Shown here piece after piece: positions 16,565 to 38,763 of a stretch of DNA of 64,000 nt. Location of the stretch: NCBI GenBank assembly GCA_964573775.1, contig CAZNKU010000003.1:2997-66996 (forward strand), read 5' to 3'. The notes under the pieces were generated by a model that saw nothing but the letters and a program-made list of their open reading frames with translations, made no database searches and was not told the DNA's origin. This stretch comes from an uncultured Clostridiaceae bacterium (GTDB lineage Bacteria > Bacillota > Clostridia > Monoglobales > Firm-18). The stretch's first letter is position 1, and every line of letters starts with the position of its first letter. Made by a program: the position numbers and the translations under genes.

Positions 16565-18199
16565 TTACTTTACGTAGTCAATTGTTGTAAATTTTGCATT
16601 ATTTGCAGGAATTGATGTACCGTTAAACTTTGCACCTGTTGCCAAAGTCATATACATTACAGGCAATTCCTTAAGGTCAGGCTTTTCACCCTTCACAATA
16701 TCAGGGAATATTTCATCAAATGACTTTGTATCATCAAAAGCCATAGTTGAAACTCTAACCTTCATAACGTAGCCGTTTTCAGTTTCACATACCAAAGACG
16801 GATAGAAAGTAACAGATGCATAAATACCTGCTTCAAGCATATTGTACTGTAAATTTTCAATAAAGAATTCAAAAAGGTCTTTGTGGTCGCGTGCAAATTC
16901 AAAAGTATCCTTTGTTGAAGATGTAGCAGCATTACCGTCAACATCTATAAAATCAGAATGATAAACAGCATTAGGAACATCCTTTAAAATCATATTGAAC
17001 TTGTCGCTGTTATTAGGATAGTTAAGAATTTCTGTTCTTATAGGTGTATCAATTTCAGCACTTATATCAAGATTTACAACAAGCGCAGAGTTAAAACCGC
17101 CAAGCATATCAAGCTGAGTCAAAATCAAGGCAAGGTTTTTACCTGTAAGCTCCTGATTAGGATAAATGTTGTCTGAGTTATCAAGTCTTATACCATTTTT
17201 ATGTGCCCCGGAAACACAAACATTCATGGTACTGTTATCAACAGCTTTTACGTCAGCATAAAAATCGTTTGTTGAACCGTCAATCAATGATTTGTATGAC
17301 TTGTTATGCATTACAAAAGTGAAAAGTGCAACTGCATCAAGGTTTGTAGCCTTTGCATCATAGAATGCTTCAGTCATTTTATCCTCACCCCATACGTGAT
17401 TACAAGCCGCACTGAAAGCAAGTACATTTGAACGATTAAAAGGAATTTCTACTGTAACACCGTCAAACATAGGTAGCGATGTTCCATACAAAAGCTGCAT
17501 TGCATAACCTGCAAGCTCACCGTTTGTATATGTTTTATCGGGATTATATTCACCAAGGAAACCCATACCCTCGTAAACATTTTCAACAATATCACTGTTT
17601 ACTGTTGAAGCAAAATCTTTTTTAGAACCTGCATCAACTGTTCTTGAACGACAAATTAAAGCCGCGGCCTCTGCACGTGTAACACCGTCGGAAAGACGCA
17701 TTGTAACACCGTCATCACCTGTCATAATACCGTAAGCATATGCCCATGCCGCAGCTTCAGGCTTTGCAGACTGATTTGTAATAACACCTGGTGCATAAGC
17801 CTTTGGAGAACCTGCACGTTTCCATAAAAGACGAATAACATCATCACGTGTAATTGCTACGTCAGGGTTAAACTTTGTACCCTCAACATCCATATCGGAA
17901 TACATTATGTAGTCATAAGCCCAATGACCTGAAATATCTTCAAAAGGTGTAGAAAATGACTTGTCTGTCATACCAATCATTTTTACAAATTCAGCACGTG
18001 TAACATTGGAATTAGGGCGGAAAGTGCCGTCCTGATAACCGTTTATTGTGCCATCACCAACAAGGGTCTGTACGTAAGAGTATGCCCAGTGGTTTGTTGA
18101 AAGGTCTGAAAAAGACCTGTCCGCATTAACTATGGTAACTGTACCCAAGGTAAGTACAAATACCAAAAGTAAGGATAAAATTTTTGTGAAATTCTTCAT
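16565..18199 (-). CDS. SLH-domain cell-surface protein
   Basis: Signal peptide, then three S-layer-homology repeats (FSDL..HWAY.Y...L...G...GY.DGTFRP....TRAEF). Confidence 0.8.
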   Translation of the reverse strand: MKNFTKILSLLLVFVLTLGTVTIVNADRSFSDLSTNHWAYSYVQTLVGDGTINGYQDGTFRPNSNVTRAEFVKMIGMTDKSFSTPFEDISGHWAYDYIMYSDMDVEGTKFNPDVAITRDDVIRLLWKRAGSPKAYAPGVITNQSAKPEAAAWAYAYGIMTGDDGVTMRLSDGVTRAEAAALICRSRTVDAGSKKDFASTVNSDIVENVYEGMGFLGEYNPDKTYTNGELAGYAMQLLYGTSLPMFDGVTVEIPFNRSNVLAFSAACNHVWGEDKMTEAFYDAKATNLDAVALFTFVMHNKSYKSLIDGSTNDFYADVKAVDNSTMNVCVSGAHKNGIRLDNSDNIYPNQELTGKNLALILTQLDMLGGFNSALVVNLDISAEIDTPIRTEILNYPNNSDKFNMILKDVPNAVYHSDFIDVDGNAATSSTKDTFEFARDHKDLFEFFIENLQYNMLEAGIYASVTFYPSLVCETENGYVMKVRVSTMAFDDTKSFDEIFPDIVKGEKPDLKELPVMYMTLATGAKFNGTSIPANNAKFTTIDYVK

Positions 18200-18252: not shown

Positions 18253-18280
18253 GCGGTACGTCGAAATCGCCGTACCCTAC
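18253..18280 (-). repeat. REP unit flanking the 3' end of RAYT-1
   Basis: The minus strand reads GTAGGGTACGGCGATTTCGACGTACCGC. The TAG of GTAG is the stop codon of RAYT-1. Confidence 0.8.
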
Positions 18281-18801
18281 ATATTATAAAAACAGTCCTG
18301 TTTCCATTTCAAAACATTTGTATCTATGTATTCCCAAATTTTACGGTAATCCTCATCACCGCGTATTATGTGATCGTGGAATGATGATTGGAATAATTGC
18401 CTTTCTTCCAAACCCCTTTTTCTGCACAACCTTGTTGTTATAGATTTAAATGCACATATAACATCGGAAATTGTAGGGCAGGGGCTTGCTCCTGCCGCCA
18501 TTTCATAATTAGAAATCAAAACATGTATGTGATTTGGCATAATAACATATTTTTCTATTTTAATTCCTTTATAACGTTCTTCCAATAATTCTATTTGCTT
18601 TCTTGCAATATCTCCATATTTTGTTAATATGTTTTCGGCAGGAGCAAGCCCCTGCCCTACGATTATATTTGACAATATACATTTTCTGTCCTTTACACAT
18701 ATTGTAACAAAATATGTTCCGGGTGTTGAGTAATCATAATTTTTTAATCTTGTAGACTTTCTATTTGGGAGTTCATTTACCATATAATTACCTGTTTTCA
18801 A
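18277..18801 (-). CDS. REP-associated tyrosine transposase (RAYT, IS200/IS605-like Y1 HUH family), copy 1
   Basis: HUH motif PNHIHVLI, a C-terminal Tyr-helix (YRKIWEYIDTNVLKW), and an N-terminus RLKNYDYSTPGTYFVTICVKDR. The likely start is M7 at 18783. Confidence 0.8.
   Translation of the reverse strand: MKTGNYMVNELPNRKSTRLKNYDYSTPGTYFVTICVKDRKCILSNIIVGQGLAPAENILTKYGDIARKQIELLEERYKGIKIEKYVIMPNHIHVLISNYEMAAGASPCPTISDVICAFKSITTRLCRKRGLEERQLFQSSFHDHIIRGDEDYRKIWEYIDTNVLKWKQDCFYNM
18473..18497 (+). repeat. REP unit inside the RAYT-1 ORF
   Basis: GTAGGGCAGGGGCTTGCTCCTGCCG. It encodes ..AAGASPCPT.. on the minus strand. Confidence 0.8.
18636..18660 (-). repeat. REP unit inside the RAYT-1 ORF (inverted partner)
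   Basis: CGGCAGGAGCAAGCCCCTGCCCTAC on the plus strand. It encodes ..VGQGLAPA... Confidence 0.8.
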
Positions 18802-18804
18802 ATA

Positions 18805-19662
18805 TCAAAAATCCAATTTGCTTTTAACAACCTCAACCGCATCTCTTGAAATATTGCATTTTAAAAGATATGCAGGAACTGTTTTAAACAACTTATTGTA
18901 AAATTCAAGCAAAAGGTCTGACTGCTTTTTAAACACGGATATAGAGATTTCTCTCATCATACGAATAACTGCCTCCATAGGCTCTATTTCAGTAATTGAA
19001 CATTCTTCTGCACGCTCTATAAACACCATTGCATGAAGGGGAGCAGACATATTTTTATTGATAAATGTCTTTCCTGCCCAGGGTGTACCAAAAGCATGAA
19101 AAACACCGTCCACACAACGTATTGCAGGCATATCGTCATTTATTATGACTGTTTCAGGATAATATTTTTGCCACAATCCTGTATGGGTGGACTTTCCTGT
19201 ACCTGAAGCGGCTGTAAAGGTTACAGCCTTGCCATTATGCATTATGGTGGATGCGTGTAAAACTGCACCGTCAAAACATCTTAACCCCTGTGCAAAAAGG
19301 TGACCAAGCACGTTAACAGCAGTAAGGTCGGGGGCAATTCCGAAAAGCTCTGTAAGGTCGCTGTATGTATAGGAAAAATCATTCCATTTTTTATTAGTTC
19401 TCATAATCGAAACAGTTTTATCAACCTCGGTTATGTAGTCATAAAAACCGCATTCTGTTTCCGTTTCAAAAAAGCTTCTGCCGTTTTTGGTAACAAAAGG
19501 CTCAGGTGTATTACGTACAATGGAATTGTTAAGCTCGAATTTAACAGATATATCCGTACTGTCAAATTTTTCAACCTCGTAATCCTTCATTCTTGAATTA
19601 AAATAATCATAATTTACACCGTCAACCGCAAGGTTTAAACCGGCAATTTTATAATATTTCAT
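18805..19662 (-). CDS. HPr-kinase-like (HprK C-terminal domain-like) P-loop protein
   Basis: The segment LHASTIMHNGKAVTFTAASGTGKSTHT...VIINDD parallels the HprK/P core (Walker A followed by a DD segment). The ATG at 19662 follows a GAGGT RBS. Confidence 0.65.
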   Translation of the reverse strand: MKYYKIAGLNLAVDGVNYDYFNSRMKDYEVEKFDSTDISVKFELNNSIVRNTPEPFVTKNGRSFFETETECGFYDYITEVDKTVSIMRTNKKWNDFSYTYSDLTELFGIAPDLTAVNVLGHLFAQGLRCFDGAVLHASTIMHNGKAVTFTAASGTGKSTHTGLWQKYYPETVIINDDMPAIRCVDGVFHAFGTPWAGKTFINKNMSAPLHAMVFIERAEECSITEIEPMEAVIRMMREISISVFKKQSDLLLEFYNKLFKTVPAYLLKCNISRDAVEVVKSKLDF

Positions 19663-19748
19663 AGCATACCTCGTAAGAAAAACTATACACATATATAATA
19701 CTATATTTTGATGAAATAAGCAAGGTTTTTTTAGTGAATAATTGATTT

Positions 19749-20371
19749 GATAAAAACGTAGGGGAGGGTTTCCACACCCTCCCGATAATATGTGCCTTTT
19801 GCGGGCGGGTACAGAGACCCGCCCCTACGTTTGTGTTTTCACATTTATTCGTAGGGTACGATGCCTTCATCGTACCGCATACATATACCTTTTCGGGCTG
19901 ATGTGGGCATCCGCCCCTACAATGTTGTTTTAAAAGATGTTACAATTAAAAAGAAACACAAGGTGTTTCTACCATAATTATTCATTATTAACTATTTGCA
20001 CTCATCCGTAGCGGGCACAGAGGCACCTCCCCTACGATGTTGTTGGTAAAATTGTAGGGGAGGGTTTCCACACCCTCCCGAATGATAAATGTTGTTGGTA
20101 AAAACATAGGGAGGGTTTCCACACCCTCCCGATAATATGTGCCTTTTGCGGGCGGGTACAGAGACCCGCCCCTACGTTTGTGTTTTCACATTTATTCGTA
20201 GGGTACGATGCCTTCATCGTACCGCATACATATACCTTTTCGGGCTGATGTGGGCATCCGCCCCTACAATGTTGTTTTAAAAGATGTTACAATTAAAAAG
20301 AAACACAAGGTGTTTCTACCATAATTATTCATTATTCATTATTCATTATTCATTATTAACTATTTGCAGTC
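19749..20371. repeat. REP array: 10 GTAGGG-hairpin units in alternating orientation, including a tandemly duplicated block of about 250 bp (19749-19999 and 20096-20357, period 347 bp) and a 7-bp microsatellite
   Basis: Units lie at 19758-83(+), 19801-28(-), 19851-78(+), 19894-920(-), 20008-35(-), 20054-80(+), 20105-30(+), 20148-75(-), 20198-225(+) and 20241-67(-). The heptamer TTCATTA has 2 copies in the first block and 5 in the second. Confidence 0.85.
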
Positions 20372-20464
20372 GGCTGTTTCCAATCAAACTTCGCCATCAC
20401 TCGTTTTCCTGGACATCCTTTGCATGGGATTCGTTCGCCAAATCACAGATTTGGACTCATCCGC
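20372..20464 (-). repeat. Module M1 copy C
   Basis: The reverse complement matches 4619-4711 and 51075-51166. Confidence 0.8.
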
Positions 20465-20493
20465 AAAAAAAAGACGGGTATAAAACCCGTCCT
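20465..20493 (-). terminator. Rho-independent terminator after the 67-aa peptide gene
   Basis: Minus-strand hairpin GACGGGTTTTATACCCGTC followed by TTTTTTTT. Confidence 0.65.
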
Positions 20494-20518
20494 TTAAAAT
20501 TTAACATTTCAATTTGGT

Positions 20519-20722
20519 TTAGCCTTCTACTGATGCAGGAAGTTCTTCTCCATTACCGTTACTTACTGTATTTGAGTAAATAGAAACTGCATAATCAGTA
20601 CTTGCTGTTCCATTCAAATAAGATTTAATCATCTGTTTTCTTAGGTTAGTAAATGAGGCTGCAATATCATTTGAAGATTTTAGATTTACAACCTTTACTG
20701 ATGGTTTTGTATACTTTTTCAT
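20519..20722 (-). CDS. 67-aa Ser/Thr/Asn-rich peptide with a KKYxKPxV N-terminus (candidate RiPP-type precursor)
   Basis: The ATG at 20722 lies 9 nt after a GGGAGGTG RBS that directly follows the stop of the upstream gene. The sequence is MKKYTKPSVKVVNLKSSNDIAASF... Confidence 0.5.
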   Translation of the reverse strand: MKKYTKPSVKVVNLKSSNDIAASFTNLRKQMIKSYLNGTASTDYAVSIYSNTVSNGNGEELPASVEG

Positions 20723-20739
20723 ACTATATTGCACCTCCC

Positions 20740-22095
20740 TTATTCTGTGTACTGTACTAAACGTTCTACTGTGTAGTACTTACCTGGTAAGTCAGTACCG
20801 TCACCAAGAACTGTAAGCTCTTTCCAAACCGGAGCATCTGTTGTACCTTCGTTGATTACAGGTGTAGCTTCGATATCCCACTGTGTAGGATCAAGAGCAC
20901 CTGTGTCAGCACCGTCAAACAACTGGATAGCGAAGTTAGTCTGACCTGTGTAAGCGTTAGCGCAGATACCAAGTTCTACAGCTTGATTTTTTGCATCCTT
21001 AGTAGTAACTTTTGTAGCATCCATAGAAACTGTACCCTTAGGATATGCAGTAATCTTAAGACCTGCTTTATCAGCGATATCTACGGTTGGAGCTGTTACA
21101 AGGAATGTAACTGAATCATACTCAGCACTACCATATTTACCATAGATAGGCTTAGAATCAATTGACATATACTGTTCCAAATCATTCTCTCCCGATGATT
21201 CCATTTTTCTATAAAGAGAAATAATTGCACCAGGTTCAAGAGTAATATTACCGAACATACCGTCTGTAATGTCGTCCTTATAGAAACCATTAACCATCAA
21301 GTTAGTTGAATTATTATCTAAAGTATTATAAATTGTGAATGTAGTACTATCATCGTTAAGTTCACCTGTTACAGAACCTGTTCTTTTTGTATATCTAATA
21401 CGAACGCTATCATAGTTGTTGTCTGTTTCATAGGCAGCCGCATTAACTACGAATGCTACAACATCATCAAGAGGAGCAAACGTCATACGGTTACTTGACA
21501 TGTCGCCGTCATACCAGTTAGGATCAAATCTACTAGCATTCATATTACCTGTTGGGGAAGCAGGAACAACCGTACCGTCAGTTTTAACATAGTACAAATC
21601 TGTTTTATTACCATTGTCGCCTTCGTTCATAAATGTGATACCTGTCAATACATCTGTGAACTTTTCAACGGACTGTATGTAGTCGTAAGGTGCTGTACCG
21701 CTTGTTGCACGAGAAAGTGTATCAACTGTAGATGTGAATTTAACCTTACCGCCTTTAAGGTCTGCATAAGCAGCAGTAAAAGTATCCATTGTAGCAACGC
21801 CATCCGCACCAACTGTAGCCTGGTCGATGTGAAGAATGTTTGAACCGTCTTCCAAAACATCGTAAGATGTTGTAGCTTCTTCACCTTCACCTGTTGTAAC
21901 AGGAGCAACGATAAGGTAAGAAACCATTGAATCTGCAGTACCGCCTGCGATTGCAGCGTTAACTGTAATGTTCTTTGTAGAAACATCATAAGTTGTTGTT
22001 ACATTGTATGTACCGTCAGCACTAACGGAACATACTGCGCATGTCATCACCAAAGTGAAGACAACCAAAGCTGAAATAATTCTTTTTAGCTTCAT
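20740..22095 (-). CDS. Secreted protein of unknown function
   Basis: 451 aa with a signal peptide (cleavage near SVSA/DG). It is Thr/Asp/Gly-rich and I recognise no motif. The ORF is strong and uninterrupted, and its codon usage resembles the SLH gene. Confidence 0.7.
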   Translation of the reverse strand: MKLKRIISALVVFTLVMTCAVCSVSADGTYNVTTTYDVSTKNITVNAAIAGGTADSMVSYLIVAPVTTGEGEEATTSYDVLEDGSNILHIDQATVGADGVATMDTFTAAYADLKGGKVKFTSTVDTLSRATSGTAPYDYIQSVEKFTDVLTGITFMNEGDNGNKTDLYYVKTDGTVVPASPTGNMNASRFDPNWYDGDMSSNRMTFAPLDDVVAFVVNAAAYETDNNYDSVRIRYTKRTGSVTGELNDDSTTFTIYNTLDNNSTNLMVNGFYKDDITDGMFGNITLEPGAIISLYRKMESSGENDLEQYMSIDSKPIYGKYGSAEYDSVTFLVTAPTVDIADKAGLKITAYPKGTVSMDATKVTTKDAKNQAVELGICANAYTGQTNFAIQLFDGADTGALDPTQWDIEATPVINEGTTDAPVWKELTVLGDGTDLPGKYYTVERLVQYTE

Positions 22096-22246
22096 TTTTA
22101 AACCTCCTTGAGTGTTAAAAAATTATAAAAATAATATTAATCATATTTTACAACTTTTTTACAGAAATGTCAATATGTTTTTTAACTTTTTTTTAAAAAA
22201 TATTTTTTAAGGGATAATTGTGGCAGAAACGCCTTGCGTTTCTTTT

Positions 22247-22274
22247 GCGGTACGATGTGGGCATCGTACCCTAC
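22247..22274 (-). repeat. REP unit flanking the 3' end of RAYT-2
   Basis: The minus strand reads GTAGGGTACGATGCCCACATCGTACCGC. Confidence 0.8.
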
Positions 22275-22282
22275 GATTATGT

Positions 22283-22774
22283 TTACATGTTGTTATAAAA
22301 ACAATCCTGCTCCCATTTTAAAACATTGGTATCTATGTATTTCCAAATTTTACGGTAATCTTCATCACCGCGTATTATGTGGTCGTGATAGGAACGTTGC
22401 CAAATAGATACACCAATTGTTTTTGTAACCATTATTTTAAATGAACGCACAATGTTTTCAATATTTACTGTAGGGGACGATGCCCTCATCGTCCCGTTAA
22501 GGACAATAATCAAATGTATGTGATTTGGCATAATCACATATTTATCAACCGTCACATTGTTGTATTTAATATTTATATTCTCAATGTACTTTTTGCATAT
22601 CAATCCACATTCAGATAAATTATTTTTCGGGACGATGTAGGCATCGTCCCCTACGATTATATTTGACAATAATTGTTTTCTGTCCTTTGTACATATTGTA
22701 ATAAAATATGCACCAGGTGTGGAATAATCAAAATTCCTTAATCTTGTTGGTTTTCTTTTTGGCAATTTTTCCAT
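22283..22774 (-). CDS. REP-associated tyrosine transposase (RAYT), copy 2
   Basis: 163 aa, paralog of 18277-18801, with HUH PNHIHLII and a C-terminus YRKIWKYIDTNVLKW. Confidence 0.8.
   Translation of the reverse strand: MEKLPKRKPTRLRNFDYSTPGAYFITICTKDRKQLLSNIIVGDDAYIVPKNNLSECGLICKKYIENINIKYNNVTVDKYVIMPNHIHLIIVLNGTMRASSPTVNIENIVRSFKIMVTKTIGVSIWQRSYHDHIIRGDEDYRKIWKYIDTNVLKWEQDCFYNNM
22470..22496 (+). repeat. REP unit inside the RAYT-2 ORF
   Basis: GTAGGGGACGATGCCCTCATCGTCCCG, with a 9-bp perfect stem. Confidence 0.8.
22628..22654 (-). repeat. REP unit inside the RAYT-2 ORF (inverted partner)
   Basis: CGGGACGATGTAGGCATCGTCCCCTAC on the plus strand. Confidence 0.8.
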
Positions 22775-22788
22775 AATATCATCAATTA

Positions 22789-24471
22789 TTATATTTTAGA
22801 TTTCGGGACGATGTGAGCATCGTCACATACGGTTATTATTTTTCCTTCATTTACAAAAATTTTCTTATCCATATACTCTTCCGCCGCATTTTTATGGGAA
22901 ATAAGTATGCAGGTTTTATCTTTAAGATTTTTTATGTTGCCAAGCATTTTTGCCTCTGTGGCAGAATCCAGTGCCGATGTAGCCTCGTCCAGAAGCAGGA
23001 CAGAAGCATTACGATACAAAGCCCTTGCAACTGCAAGGCGTTGCACCTGACCTTCGGAAATGCCGACACCGTTTTCACCAATTACGGTGTTAATGCCATC
23101 CGTCATTTCGGAAATATCGTCCCAAAGGCAAGCAATTTTAAGACATTCTTCTATTTTTTTGCTATCGGCATTTTCACCAAAAAAAACCACATTTTCCGCA
23201 ACGGTACCTGAAAGCACCATATTACCCTGTGGTACGTAGGAAAACAGATTTCTATAATCTGCACCGAGCATATGCTCGTTACCCTGTGTATCGGTAAGTA
23301 TTATTTCACCGCTATCGGGGCTGTACATAGCAAGCAGTAATTTTAAAAGTGTGCTTTTACCTATGCCTGATACTCCCGATATAAGTACAAAGTCGCCTTT
23401 ATTAATTTTAAGGTCTGTATTTTTAAGCACTGTTTCATCCTTATTATAAGAAAAGGAAACTTTTTTAAATTCTATGCTTTCAAAGTCTGTAATATCAACT
23501 GTATTTTTATCTTCGGCATATTGCACAATGTCCATTAGTCTTTCTGCAGATGCTATCATCTGATAATACTGTGGTATTACGGAAGCGATACCTTTAAAGG
23601 GTGACTGCACCTTACCTACAAGCTGTACCATAGCCATAAGGTTGCCGTAGCTTAGTGTGCCGAAGGCTATGCCGAAAGCACCCCAGCCAAGTGCCAGAAA
23701 GTAACCGAAGGTAAATGCAAATTCTGCCGCAAGGCTTGCCATAATATTATTGTTATTACGTTTTTTTAGTGCCTTATAGTTATTATTCTGTATGCCCTCT
23801 GCATGCTTTACAACTCTATGTTCATTTGCAAAGGATTTTATAACCAACAGGTTTTGTATACATTCCAGCATAAAGGAATTGCTTTTATCACTCCATTTGC
23901 GGCATATAAGGGTATACTTTTTAAGACGTTTGCCCCAAAGCATTGCACCTACACCGACAACTATACCAACAGCCGCACATACAAGTGCAAAAACAGGCTG
24001 TATAACAAGCAGTGCACCAAAGGCGGAAACAACGCCTGTTACAAATGCAAGTATCTGCGGAATTATGCCGATTATTGCACACATTACCACATCGGAATCT
24101 ACGGTGATGCGATTTAAAATTTCACCGCTGTGCATAGAAGTTGCGTGGGCATACTGCATATTTATTGCATTGGAAAATATCTGTCTTTGCAGTTTTAATG
24201 TATGCTTTGCAACAATATCTGCACTTATTTTCATATAAGAAAAGCTTAGCAAAAATTGCAGAATAATCAAAACGCCAAGTAATGTTGCGGATTTTATAAG
24301 TCCATCTTTGTTTTGTGCCACCGCAAAGTCTATTACACTTTTGGACTGCAGTGCAAGCACTACTCCACAAAATGAATTAAGTATTCCTACAATACTTATT
24401 ACGCAAATTCCAGGTATAGCGGGCTTTCCTATGCTTTTTATCCATTGGAGGACAGGATTTTTATTTTTCAA
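22789..24471 (-). CDS. ABC exporter, fused permease/ATPase (type I exporter; no C39 peptidase domain)
   Basis: 560 aa with 6 TM helices, then Walker A GVSGIGKST, the signature ISEGQVQR and Walker B LLLDEATS. The last 11 codons run into a degenerate REP (22804-22830). Confidence 0.85.
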   Translation of the reverse strand: MKNKNPVLQWIKSIGKPAIPGICVISIVGILNSFCGVVLALQSKSVIDFAVAQNKDGLIKSATLLGVLIILQFLLSFSYMKISADIVAKHTLKLQRQIFSNAINMQYAHATSMHSGEILNRITVDSDVVMCAIIGIIPQILAFVTGVVSAFGALLVIQPVFALVCAAVGIVVGVGAMLWGKRLKKYTLICRKWSDKSNSFMLECIQNLLVIKSFANEHRVVKHAEGIQNNNYKALKKRNNNNIMASLAAEFAFTFGYFLALGWGAFGIAFGTLSYGNLMAMVQLVGKVQSPFKGIASVIPQYYQMIASAERLMDIVQYAEDKNTVDITDFESIEFKKVSFSYNKDETVLKNTDLKINKGDFVLISGVSGIGKSTLLKLLLAMYSPDSGEIILTDTQGNEHMLGADYRNLFSYVPQGNMVLSGTVAENVVFFGENADSKKIEECLKIACLWDDISEMTDGINTVIGENGVGISEGQVQRLAVARALYRNASVLLLDEATSALDSATEAKMLGNIKNLKDKTCILISHKNAAEEYMDKKIFVNEGKIITVCDDAHIVPKSKI

Positions 24472-24502: not shown

Positions 24503-24648
24503 CGGGAGGGTGCAGAGACCCTCCCCTACGATTATATTTGACAGCAATTGTTTTCTGTCCTTTGTACATATTGTAACAAAATATGCACCCGGTTTGGAAT
24601 AATCAAATTTTTTTAATCTTGTGGCTTTCTTTTTGGCAATTTTTCCAT
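24503..24648 (-). pseudogene. Truncated, frameshifted RAYT N-terminal fragment
   Basis: The minus strand reads ATGGAAAAATTGCCAAAAAGAAAGCCACAAGATTAA... It is colinear with the RAYT-2 5' end but has a 1-nt deletion, and it ends at its first internal REP (24503-24529). Confidence 0.7.
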
Positions 24649-38738: not shown

Positions 38739-38763
38739 GTAGGGCAAGGGCTTGCTCTTGCCG
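38739..38763 (+). repeat. Isolated REP unit
   Basis: GTAGGGCAAGGGCTTGCTCTTGCCG. It belongs to the same stem class as the units inside RAYT-1. Confidence 0.7.

Follow-up and report, generated by a model that had tools for sequence, protein, structure and literature searches.

Inverted pairs of REP hairpins inside clostridial RAYT genes and their conservation at the level of DNA

The enzymes encoded by RAYT genes (REP-associated tyrosine transposases, or TnpA-REP) bind and cut GTAG-headed stem-loops, the repetitive extragenic palindromes (REPs), as single-stranded DNA. In a 64,000-nt stretch of DNA from an uncultured Clostridiaceae bacterium, contig CAZNKU010000003.1 (the window, whose own numbering is used for all positions), two intact genes for such enzymes, RAYT-1 and RAYT-2, each contain two REP hairpins in frame. 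In the one that precedes the segment encoding the HUH motif (site 1) the GTAG head is on the sense strand, and in the one that follows that segment (site 2) it is on the antisense strand. The stem is specific to the gene: that of RAYT-1 differs from that of RAYT-2, and the two copies within a gene match. As judged from comparison with homologous genes, it is the DNA that is constrained: the GTAG head and the local stem are held at the nucleotide level, the two copies evolve in concert and they are inherited together with the enzyme. Why should a gene keep such sites within its own coding sequence? The reading favoured here, at a probability of roughly 0.55, is that the encoded enzyme would recognise the internal REPs as putative cognate substrates.

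The four internal elements are genuine REP units, each with a GTAG head and a G+C-rich stem-loop, and they lie in two surface loops of the protein. GTAG-stem units are also found outside genes in the window, sharing with the internal ones the conserved head (A)AT(C/T)GTAGGG, a G+C-rich stem of variable sequence and the tail CCG, and so the internal elements belong to the REP repertoire of the genome. A preliminary description of this DNA had reported two inverted REPs around the HUH motif in each intact RAYT open reading frame (ORF), and both the inverted-repeat arms and the REP cores bear it out; its coordinates and translations were all correct for both genes. The arms in RAYT-1 (18469-18497 and 18636-18664, spacing 138 nt) make a 29-nt inverted repeat of 97% complementarity, and in the window genes it is the 131-138 nt between the inverted REPs that encode PNHIH. 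In an AlphaFold model of RAYT-2, whose mean predicted local distance difference test score (pLDDT) is 76.6, both REP-encoded peptides are low-confidence loops, the first (residues 41-49) forming the tip of the beta-hairpin that precedes helix A and the second (residues 93-104) joining the HUH strand to the helix that follows it, with pLDDT below 50 for residues 97-100. Relatives free of REPs have a tight turn at site 1 (e.g., ..IVNGEM..) and unrelated loops at site 2.

How much of the hairpin is simply forced by the peptide that it encodes? Among 5000 synonymous recodings per gene, made with a codon table that included the REP codons themselves, none attained the complementarity of the arms in either RAYT-1 (28/29, against a maximum of 26) or RAYT-2 (25/27, against 23), and the energies of the RAYT-2 hairpins were matched by at most 4. 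On these counts the synonymous-shuffling check proposed in the preliminary description came out in its favour, decisively so for the energy of the RAYT-2 hairpins, and for the energy of the RAYT-1 hairpins it came out weakly, a point taken up below. As the REP peptides themselves derive from REPs, the recoding test is conservative, and a test of synonymous sites across species is the more informative. Folded as isolated strands and compared with dinucleotide shuffles, the sequences gave z = -8.6 for RAYT-1 (as RNA) and z = -7.9 for RAYT-2 (as DNA).

A scan for homologs, with one genome per species and the best-matching kept, gave 80 loci (L001-L080) of 48-79% protein identity, nearly all from metagenome-assembled genomes of Clostridia / Oscillospiraceae, the nearest relatives of the window RAYTs. 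For 78 of them the called ORF contains the HUH motif, and on these the REP counts are based: both the site-1 (+) and the site-2 (-) REP are present in 70, one in 8 and neither in 0, the site-2 REP being found in 76. Orientation is constant in all loci carrying both. At least seven REP stem classes occur among the 80 loci. The stems of the two sites are identical in 44 of the 70 two-REP loci and mostly near-identical in the rest, in keeping with the original statement that each gene has one stem class. Class follows protein clade, for with the REP-coded columns masked identity is 0.64-0.81 within classes (B, C2, D and E) and at most 0.67 between classes. The closest 120 RAYT-2 homologs (72-86% identity) retain both REP-encoded peptides, with no presence/absence polymorphism, and in 50 close RAYT-2 homologs the stem codons are nearly invariant and the residue at the centre of the loop (positions 46 and 97) varies. 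Tandem REP units, two or more at one site, are seen at site 1 of two loci (L019 and L020) and in five proteins (P0128, P0152, P0184, P0191 and P0268), sometimes in another frame, and there yield low-complexity inserts (e.g., ..RAGACSCRLPNSRLAPAE.., or repeated GRLIIAPT). In 421 kb of flanking DNA around the homolog loci 82 extragenic REPs were counted (GG-stem REPs), 15 of them with a stem identical to that of the internal REP of the neighbouring gene. With no extragenic REP within 3 kb in 44 of the 80 loci, the internal pair is the only association with REPs that is constant for these genes.

DNA and protein contrast clearly within the RAYT-1 class (class A). In 28 of its genes, with a median protein identity of 57%, the REPs are 100% identical, and synonymous codons compared pairwise show an identity of 0.88 within the REPs against 0.50 outside them (p = 1e-7). 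Most class-A genes keep a G.T pair of the GTAG strand in both copies, and where it has become G-C (L009, L071 and L025-L027) it has done so in both copies together. The site-2 REP occupies three reading frames, so that its peptides end ..PT, ..PP-L or ..PY, and between REP classes the peptides differ completely while the hairpin and GTAG head persist. Could selection nonetheless be for the peptides, with the palindromic DNA incidental to them? Though the peptides are conserved within each clade, the three site-2 frames together with the synonymous conservation effectively refute this, and the complete difference of peptides between classes, the low pLDDT of the two segments and the unrelated loops that distant homologs have at both positions leave it with hardly any credibility. 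The claim made at the outset, that it is the nucleic-acid hairpin and not the peptide that is constrained, is upheld by the synonymous conservation, by the three frames of site 2 and by compensation within hairpins.

The last of these needs spelling out, as the two arms can pair either each with itself or with one another. Where stems of equal length differ between the sites, 15 positions have changed on both sides of a pair and 5 on one side only, so that the local hairpin is preserved even where complementarity between the arms is lost. None of the 70 two-REP loci retains arm-to-arm pairing at the cost of the local hairpins. In 33 of the 70 the two sites have different loops, systematically so in some classes (in class D, CTCTGY versus TTCCAY), and the G.T pair of the GTAG strand is, at site 2, an A.C mismatch in the mRNA. 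These observations matter for a proposal of mRNA control, whereby the arms would pair in the transcript as a duplex of about 25 bp around the HUH segment and RNase III, or a block to translation, would lower the amount of RAYT. The minimum-free-energy fold of RAYT-1 RNA is indeed a long-range stem (-78.7 kcal/mol, with the z-score given above), the RAYT-2 DNA fold gives the same kind of stem, arm complementarity exceeds that of every synonymous recoding, and down-regulation of RAYT and IS200 expression by hairpins has been raised in discussion (PMC3733652). However, the stem differences mostly keep the local hairpins and break the long duplex, the reverse case being absent; the loops diverge systematically, the site-2 A.C mismatch has been left unrepaired, and distant relatives carry only the post-HUH REP. 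The proposal is improbable on this balance. The earlier suggestion of attenuation is rejected, and with it a terminator reading, as the sense strand has no U-run after either hairpin in RAYT-1 or RAYT-2.

It is instructive to set this beside IS200, where a hairpin in the leader of the mRNA masks the ribosome-binding site. The likeness is of a Y1 transposase gene whose expression could be held down by a stable stem-loop within it (PMC3733652); the difference is that the hairpins here lie far inside the coding region, each being a copy of a repeat that is dispersed.

REPs within tnpA-REP genes, with the reading frame preserved, were described by Quentin, Siguier, Chandler and Fichant (2018, BMC Genomics 19:475, PMC6006769), according to whose text the region of insertion is variable and peripheral, and the impact on activity may be small. 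The insertion-prone group is their subclass 2.4, equivalent to RAYT Group 4 of Bertels et al. 2017, and double-foot REPs are reported for it in the same text (PMC6006769). The window stems, which start GGC, GGG or GGT, have the G-C base of the stem by which subclass 2.4 / Group 4 is characterised, and double-foot REPs, e.g., GTAGGGGCGACC..GGTCGCCCCTAC, are present in distant relatives. These relatives come from a scan of metagenomes that started from a Chloroflexota relative and gave 80 loci, with a usable ORF in 75, as part of a total of 163 fetched loci (L001-L163). Heads of GT[AG]G type follow the HUH motif in 71 of the 75, on both strands in 58, and a clear site-1 REP is seen in only 2 (L098 and L157). 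The preliminary description had pointed to odd inserts after the HUH motif in related proteins; these are real and REP-derived, as the 71 of 75 attest, and are not the unexplained property that it suggested they may be, since the text of PMC6006769 accounts for them. Neither is the paired layout family-wide, as had been suggested: it characterises the clostridial clade and is seldom met outside it. Among site-1/site-2 peptide pairs of cluster representatives, those whose coding could be reverse complements over runs of at least 24 nt number 32 of 139 for the real pairs and 8 of 686 for shuffled pairs (p = 4e-10), a score of uninterrupted runs that undercounts cases with differing loops.

What, then, is new? 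REPs inside RAYT genes have been known since 2018, and the post-HUH insert is widespread and already explained as REP insertion. Apparently new are the pre-HUH REP, which in the clostridial clade gives a split inverted pair around the HUH motif, and the evidence for concerted conservation of the internal REPs at the nucleotide level. The running text of PMC6006769 makes no mention of pairing, covariation between copies, synonymous conservation or frame variation, and none of the first three was found in the other texts consulted. By its sequence features, the clostridial branch in which the layout is inherited belongs to the RAYT group prone to REP insertion (subclass 2.4 / Group 4). Likeness to subclass 2.4 as published thus extends to frame-preserving GTAG REPs in the RAYT gene, to a variable peripheral segment and to the double-foot type in relatives; the differences are that the second REP is here fixed before the HUH motif, at the tip of the beta-hairpin, that the inverted pair brackets that motif, and that the 2018 text treats the inserts as tolerated (PMC6006769).

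What favours recognition by the encoded enzyme as the cause of the conservation is that the conserved positions, GTAG and stem, match those read by TnpA-REP enzymes, which read the GTAG head, positions of the lower stem and stem irregularities, with a role for the loop that depends on the system (PMC8266576). If so, the gene would always carry, in consequence of that recognition, one recognisable REP per DNA strand, and a recognisable site would be exposed whichever strand turned single-stranded. The enzyme would be permanently and physically linked to a putative copy that seeds its REP class or serves it as a reference; it may be limited or regulated by binding in cis; occasional cleavage may make the internal REPs breakpoints for rearrangement; and the REP-encoded peptides would be passengers, tolerated in loops. 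Several considerations count against recognition at the gene. The conservation could instead stem from repeated overwriting by the genomic REP pool, with no function at the gene. An isolated strand thermodynamically favours the long-range 25-bp stem over two local hairpins. The hairpin energy of RAYT-1 is weakly unusual given its peptide, 127-841 of the 5000 recodings matching it, a weak result because the G/A/P-rich peptide already forces G+C-rich DNA. In a protein-level survey of the best 150 representatives of 50%-identity clusters, many have no REP signature at one or both sites, and internal REPs are lacking in three plasmid-borne relatives, from Leptolinea, Fulvitalea and Spirosoma (the three examined of four distant tblastn matches). 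REPs are therefore dispensable for the protein family.

The overwriting just mentioned is part of a broader alternative, that the internal REPs are tolerated passengers. REPs would insert in cis near or inside the gene of the enzyme that mobilises them, only in-frame insertions in loops would survive, and homogenisation by the genomic pool would keep them alike, all without function. This is essentially the view in the text of Quentin et al. 2018 (PMC6006769), and much is compatible with it: both sites are low-confidence loops, tandem arrays have arisen at either site in the relatives named above, many relatives have no REPs, and REPs are known inside unrelated genes (PMC3733652), as exemplified in the window by an ABC (ATP-binding cassette) transporter ORF whose C-terminus is formed by a REP. 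It sits less well with an orientation that is fixed in every two-REP locus though coding constraints do not force it, with the lack of presence/absence polymorphism in the 120 closest RAYT-2 homologs, with the 44 of 80 loci that have no potential donor REP within 3 kb, and with class-A REPs that are 100% identical in proteins that are not. We regard passenger status as possible but as the less likely explanation of the two.

Enzyme recognition might be taken a step further. As Bertels and Rainey reportedly put it in 2011, a REPIN is a doublet of REPs that forms a hairpin. The clostridial arrangement resembles one in having two inverted REPs able to fold into one long hairpin. It differs in that the spacer, 129-170 nt in two-REP loci, encodes the catalytic HUH motif and in that the evolutionary pattern favours two local hairpins. 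Membership among REPINs, which are multi-copy mobile units with a short non-coding spacer, was considered for the window genes and set aside, for though the pair is inverted the 131-138 nt that separate its members are coding, and the window has no further copies of the unit. Still, the split inverted pair may tentatively be seen as a functional cis-element, REPIN-like with an HUH-encoding loop, which would provide self-regulating binding of single-stranded DNA and a protected master copy and would make enzyme and substrate inseparable, whether by recombination or by transfer; this is speculative and should be held with some doubt.

Do the internal REPs break? The preliminary description had proposed them as recombination breakpoints and had noted that a truncated third RAYT copy in the window ends at its first internal REP, which is correct (Table 1). 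Three fragments are broken at the site-1 REP: this copy, a mid-gene fragment at L064 that starts within the REP, and the left end of an array at L041. These breaks at REP edges fit occasional cutting or recombinogenic sites, and the support they lend to the breakpoint idea is anecdotal. In the L041 array (L041:2375-3516) a 358-bp unit of 5' RAYT sequence, which runs from around the start to about 20 nt past the site-2 REP, is present three times in tandem, giving six internal-type REPs in a row, and the leftmost partial copy starts at a REP head. As a clean REP-bounded event the array was rejected, since the repeat junction is about 20 nt past the site-2 REP and only the left end meets a REP head. 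A more elaborate suggestion is of a switch, in which recombination or RAYT action between the REPs would flip or remove the HUH segment and so turn the enzyme off and on. Inverted repeats of 24-32 nt do flank the segment with the catalytic motif, and the three fragments show REPs acting as breakpoints, but no inverted or HUH-deleted variant was found in the window or the 163 fetched loci, a weak test as the sampling favoured best-matching intact genes. Ten proteins without a PNHxH match, candidates for REP-to-REP deletion, turned out merely to have PDH-type or mutated motifs, as representatives lacking PNHxH do. A switch is very unlikely.

That RAYT-1 and RAYT-2 belong with the RAYT / TnpA-REP family is supported from several sides. 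Pfam Y1_Tnp (PF01797) matches them at 29.1 bits (RAYT-1) and 26.9 bits (RAYT-2), above the gathering cutoff of 23, and the HUH histidines (PNHIH) and the Tyr of ..EYIDTN.. are invariant in homolog alignments A1 and A2. The top NCBIfam match is REP_Tyr_transpos (NF047646), and its 68 and 59.8 bits, below the curated cutoff of 80, point to a divergent branch of the family. The association with GTAG-headed REPs that marks RAYTs is present, with REPs inside and beside both genes and a cluster of them at 19.7-20.3 kb. An IS200/IS605 insertion sequence, in which subterminal hairpins flank the transposase gene and near-identical copies occur in the genome, was considered and rejected: the hairpins are internal, the window copies are only ~54% identical and the NCBIfam model transpos_IS200 gives 21.7 bits where its cutoff is 55. 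Among solved structures, the nearest in sequence is that of E. coli TnpA-REP, 4ER8 (E = 3.7e-6). The E. coli REPtron is alike in its HUH/Tyr Y1 fold, its GTAG-headed imperfect hairpin substrates and the physical association of gene and REP; there, though, the REPs flank the gene, and in the clostridial clade they are internal, with no extragenic one nearby in the majority of loci counted above. Rickettsia palindromic elements, and REPs inside ORFs (Di Nocera et al. 2013, PMC3733652), offer a further parallel as repeats translated into extra loop peptides with the protein left intact. What sets the clostridial case apart is that the repeat is carried by the gene of the very enzyme that presumably acts on it, and that position and orientation are conserved across a clade. 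In two loci (L030:6020-6478 and L045:1909-2424) there is a second, divergent RAYT paralog less than 3 kb from the first, the classes clustering as they do in the window. Two database entries, P0075 and P0121, begin at an internal TTG/ATG just 5' of the first REP (MSNIIVG.. and MSKIIVG..) with loss of some 35 N-terminal residues, and look like annotation truncations.

Table 1. RAYT genes, gene fragment and REP units located in the 64,000-nt window
Feature	Positions	Strand	Description
RAYT-1 coding sequence	18277..18801	-	TTG start; alternative ATG at 18783; intact Y1 HUH transposase-like gene
RAYT-1 site-1 REP	18637..18660	-	GTAG GGCAGGGG CTTG CTCCTGCC; before HUH; encodes VGQGLAPA
RAYT-1 site-2 REP	18473..18496	+	sequence as site 1; GTAG head antisense, after HUH; encodes AGASPCPT
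RAYT-2 coding sequence	22283..22774	-	intact; ~54% identical to RAYT-1
RAYT-2 site-1 REP	22629..22654	-	GTAG GGGACGATG CCTA CATCGTCCC; encodes VGDDAYIVP
RAYT-2 site-2 REP	22470..22495	+	GTAG GGGACGATG CCCT CATCGTCCC; head antisense; encodes GTMRASSPT
Truncated, frameshifted RAYT 5' fragment	24503..24648	-	homology stops at 3' edge of site-1 REP
Site-1 REP of truncated copy	24504..24529		GGGAGGGT CTCTGC ACCCTCCC
Extragenic REP, other stem class	18255..18280	-	GGTACGGCG ATTT CGACGTACC; GTAG head holds RAYT-1 stop TAG
BIME-like REP cluster	19758..20267		several stem classes, alternating orientation
Extragenic REP just downstream of RAYT-2	22249..22274	-	related stem GGTACGATG CCCA CATCGTACC
Degenerate REP, RAYT-2 class	22805..22830	-	head GTAT, one stem mismatch; in upstream ABC-transporter ORF
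Lone extragenic REP, RAYT-1 stem class	38739..38762	+	GGCAAGGG CTTG CTCTTGCC; one compensated pair different; between two genes

Other REPs of the window are given in Table 1. That RAYT-1 takes its stop codon from the head of a flanking REP, as first described, holds good. The cluster resembling a bacterial interspersed mosaic element (BIME) has at least four REP stem classes in units some 45-48 nt apart, and within it is a 235-nt tandem duplication of 99% identity and 347-nt spacing (19762-19996 and 20109-20343). Another extragenic REP is at 24.7 kb, upstream of the truncated RAYT copy. The last ~12 codons (..VCDDAHIVPKSKI) of the ABC-transporter ORF (22789-24471, minus strand) are the degenerate REP of RAYT-2 class, and its annotated C-terminus is for this reason probably REP-derived. 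The gene downstream of RAYT-1 (16565-18199, minus strand) encodes a secreted protein with, by eye, N-terminal repeats like those of S-layer-homology domains (..HWAYSYVQTLVGDGTINGYQDGTFRPNSNVTRAEFVKMI..), which would fit a Gram-positive (Bacillota) origin. Elsewhere in the window, a direct repeat of ~75 nt (at ~880-955 and ~1083-1158, 202 nt apart) has at the end of each copy a 12-bp hairpin, GAAATC[C/T]GTATG ATTA CATACGGATTTC, which is perfect in copy one and includes a single G.T pair in copy two, and then a T-rich stretch. The repeat resembles a segment with a terminator that has been duplicated, and it has no relation to the G+C-rich REPs. Rfam has no family match anywhere in the window.

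How RAYTs are matched to REP classes, and how the two persist together over long periods, is an open question in the field. In the clostridial clade the gene itself states its cognate REP, and RAYT paralogs can thus be paired with REP classes by sequence, even in fragmentary metagenomes. For annotation, the peptides that the REPs encode are not to be taken for protein motifs. Beyond that, concerted conservation at the nucleotide level turns a published curiosity, insertions that are tolerated, into a testable claim, that the enzyme would recognise sites in its own gene.

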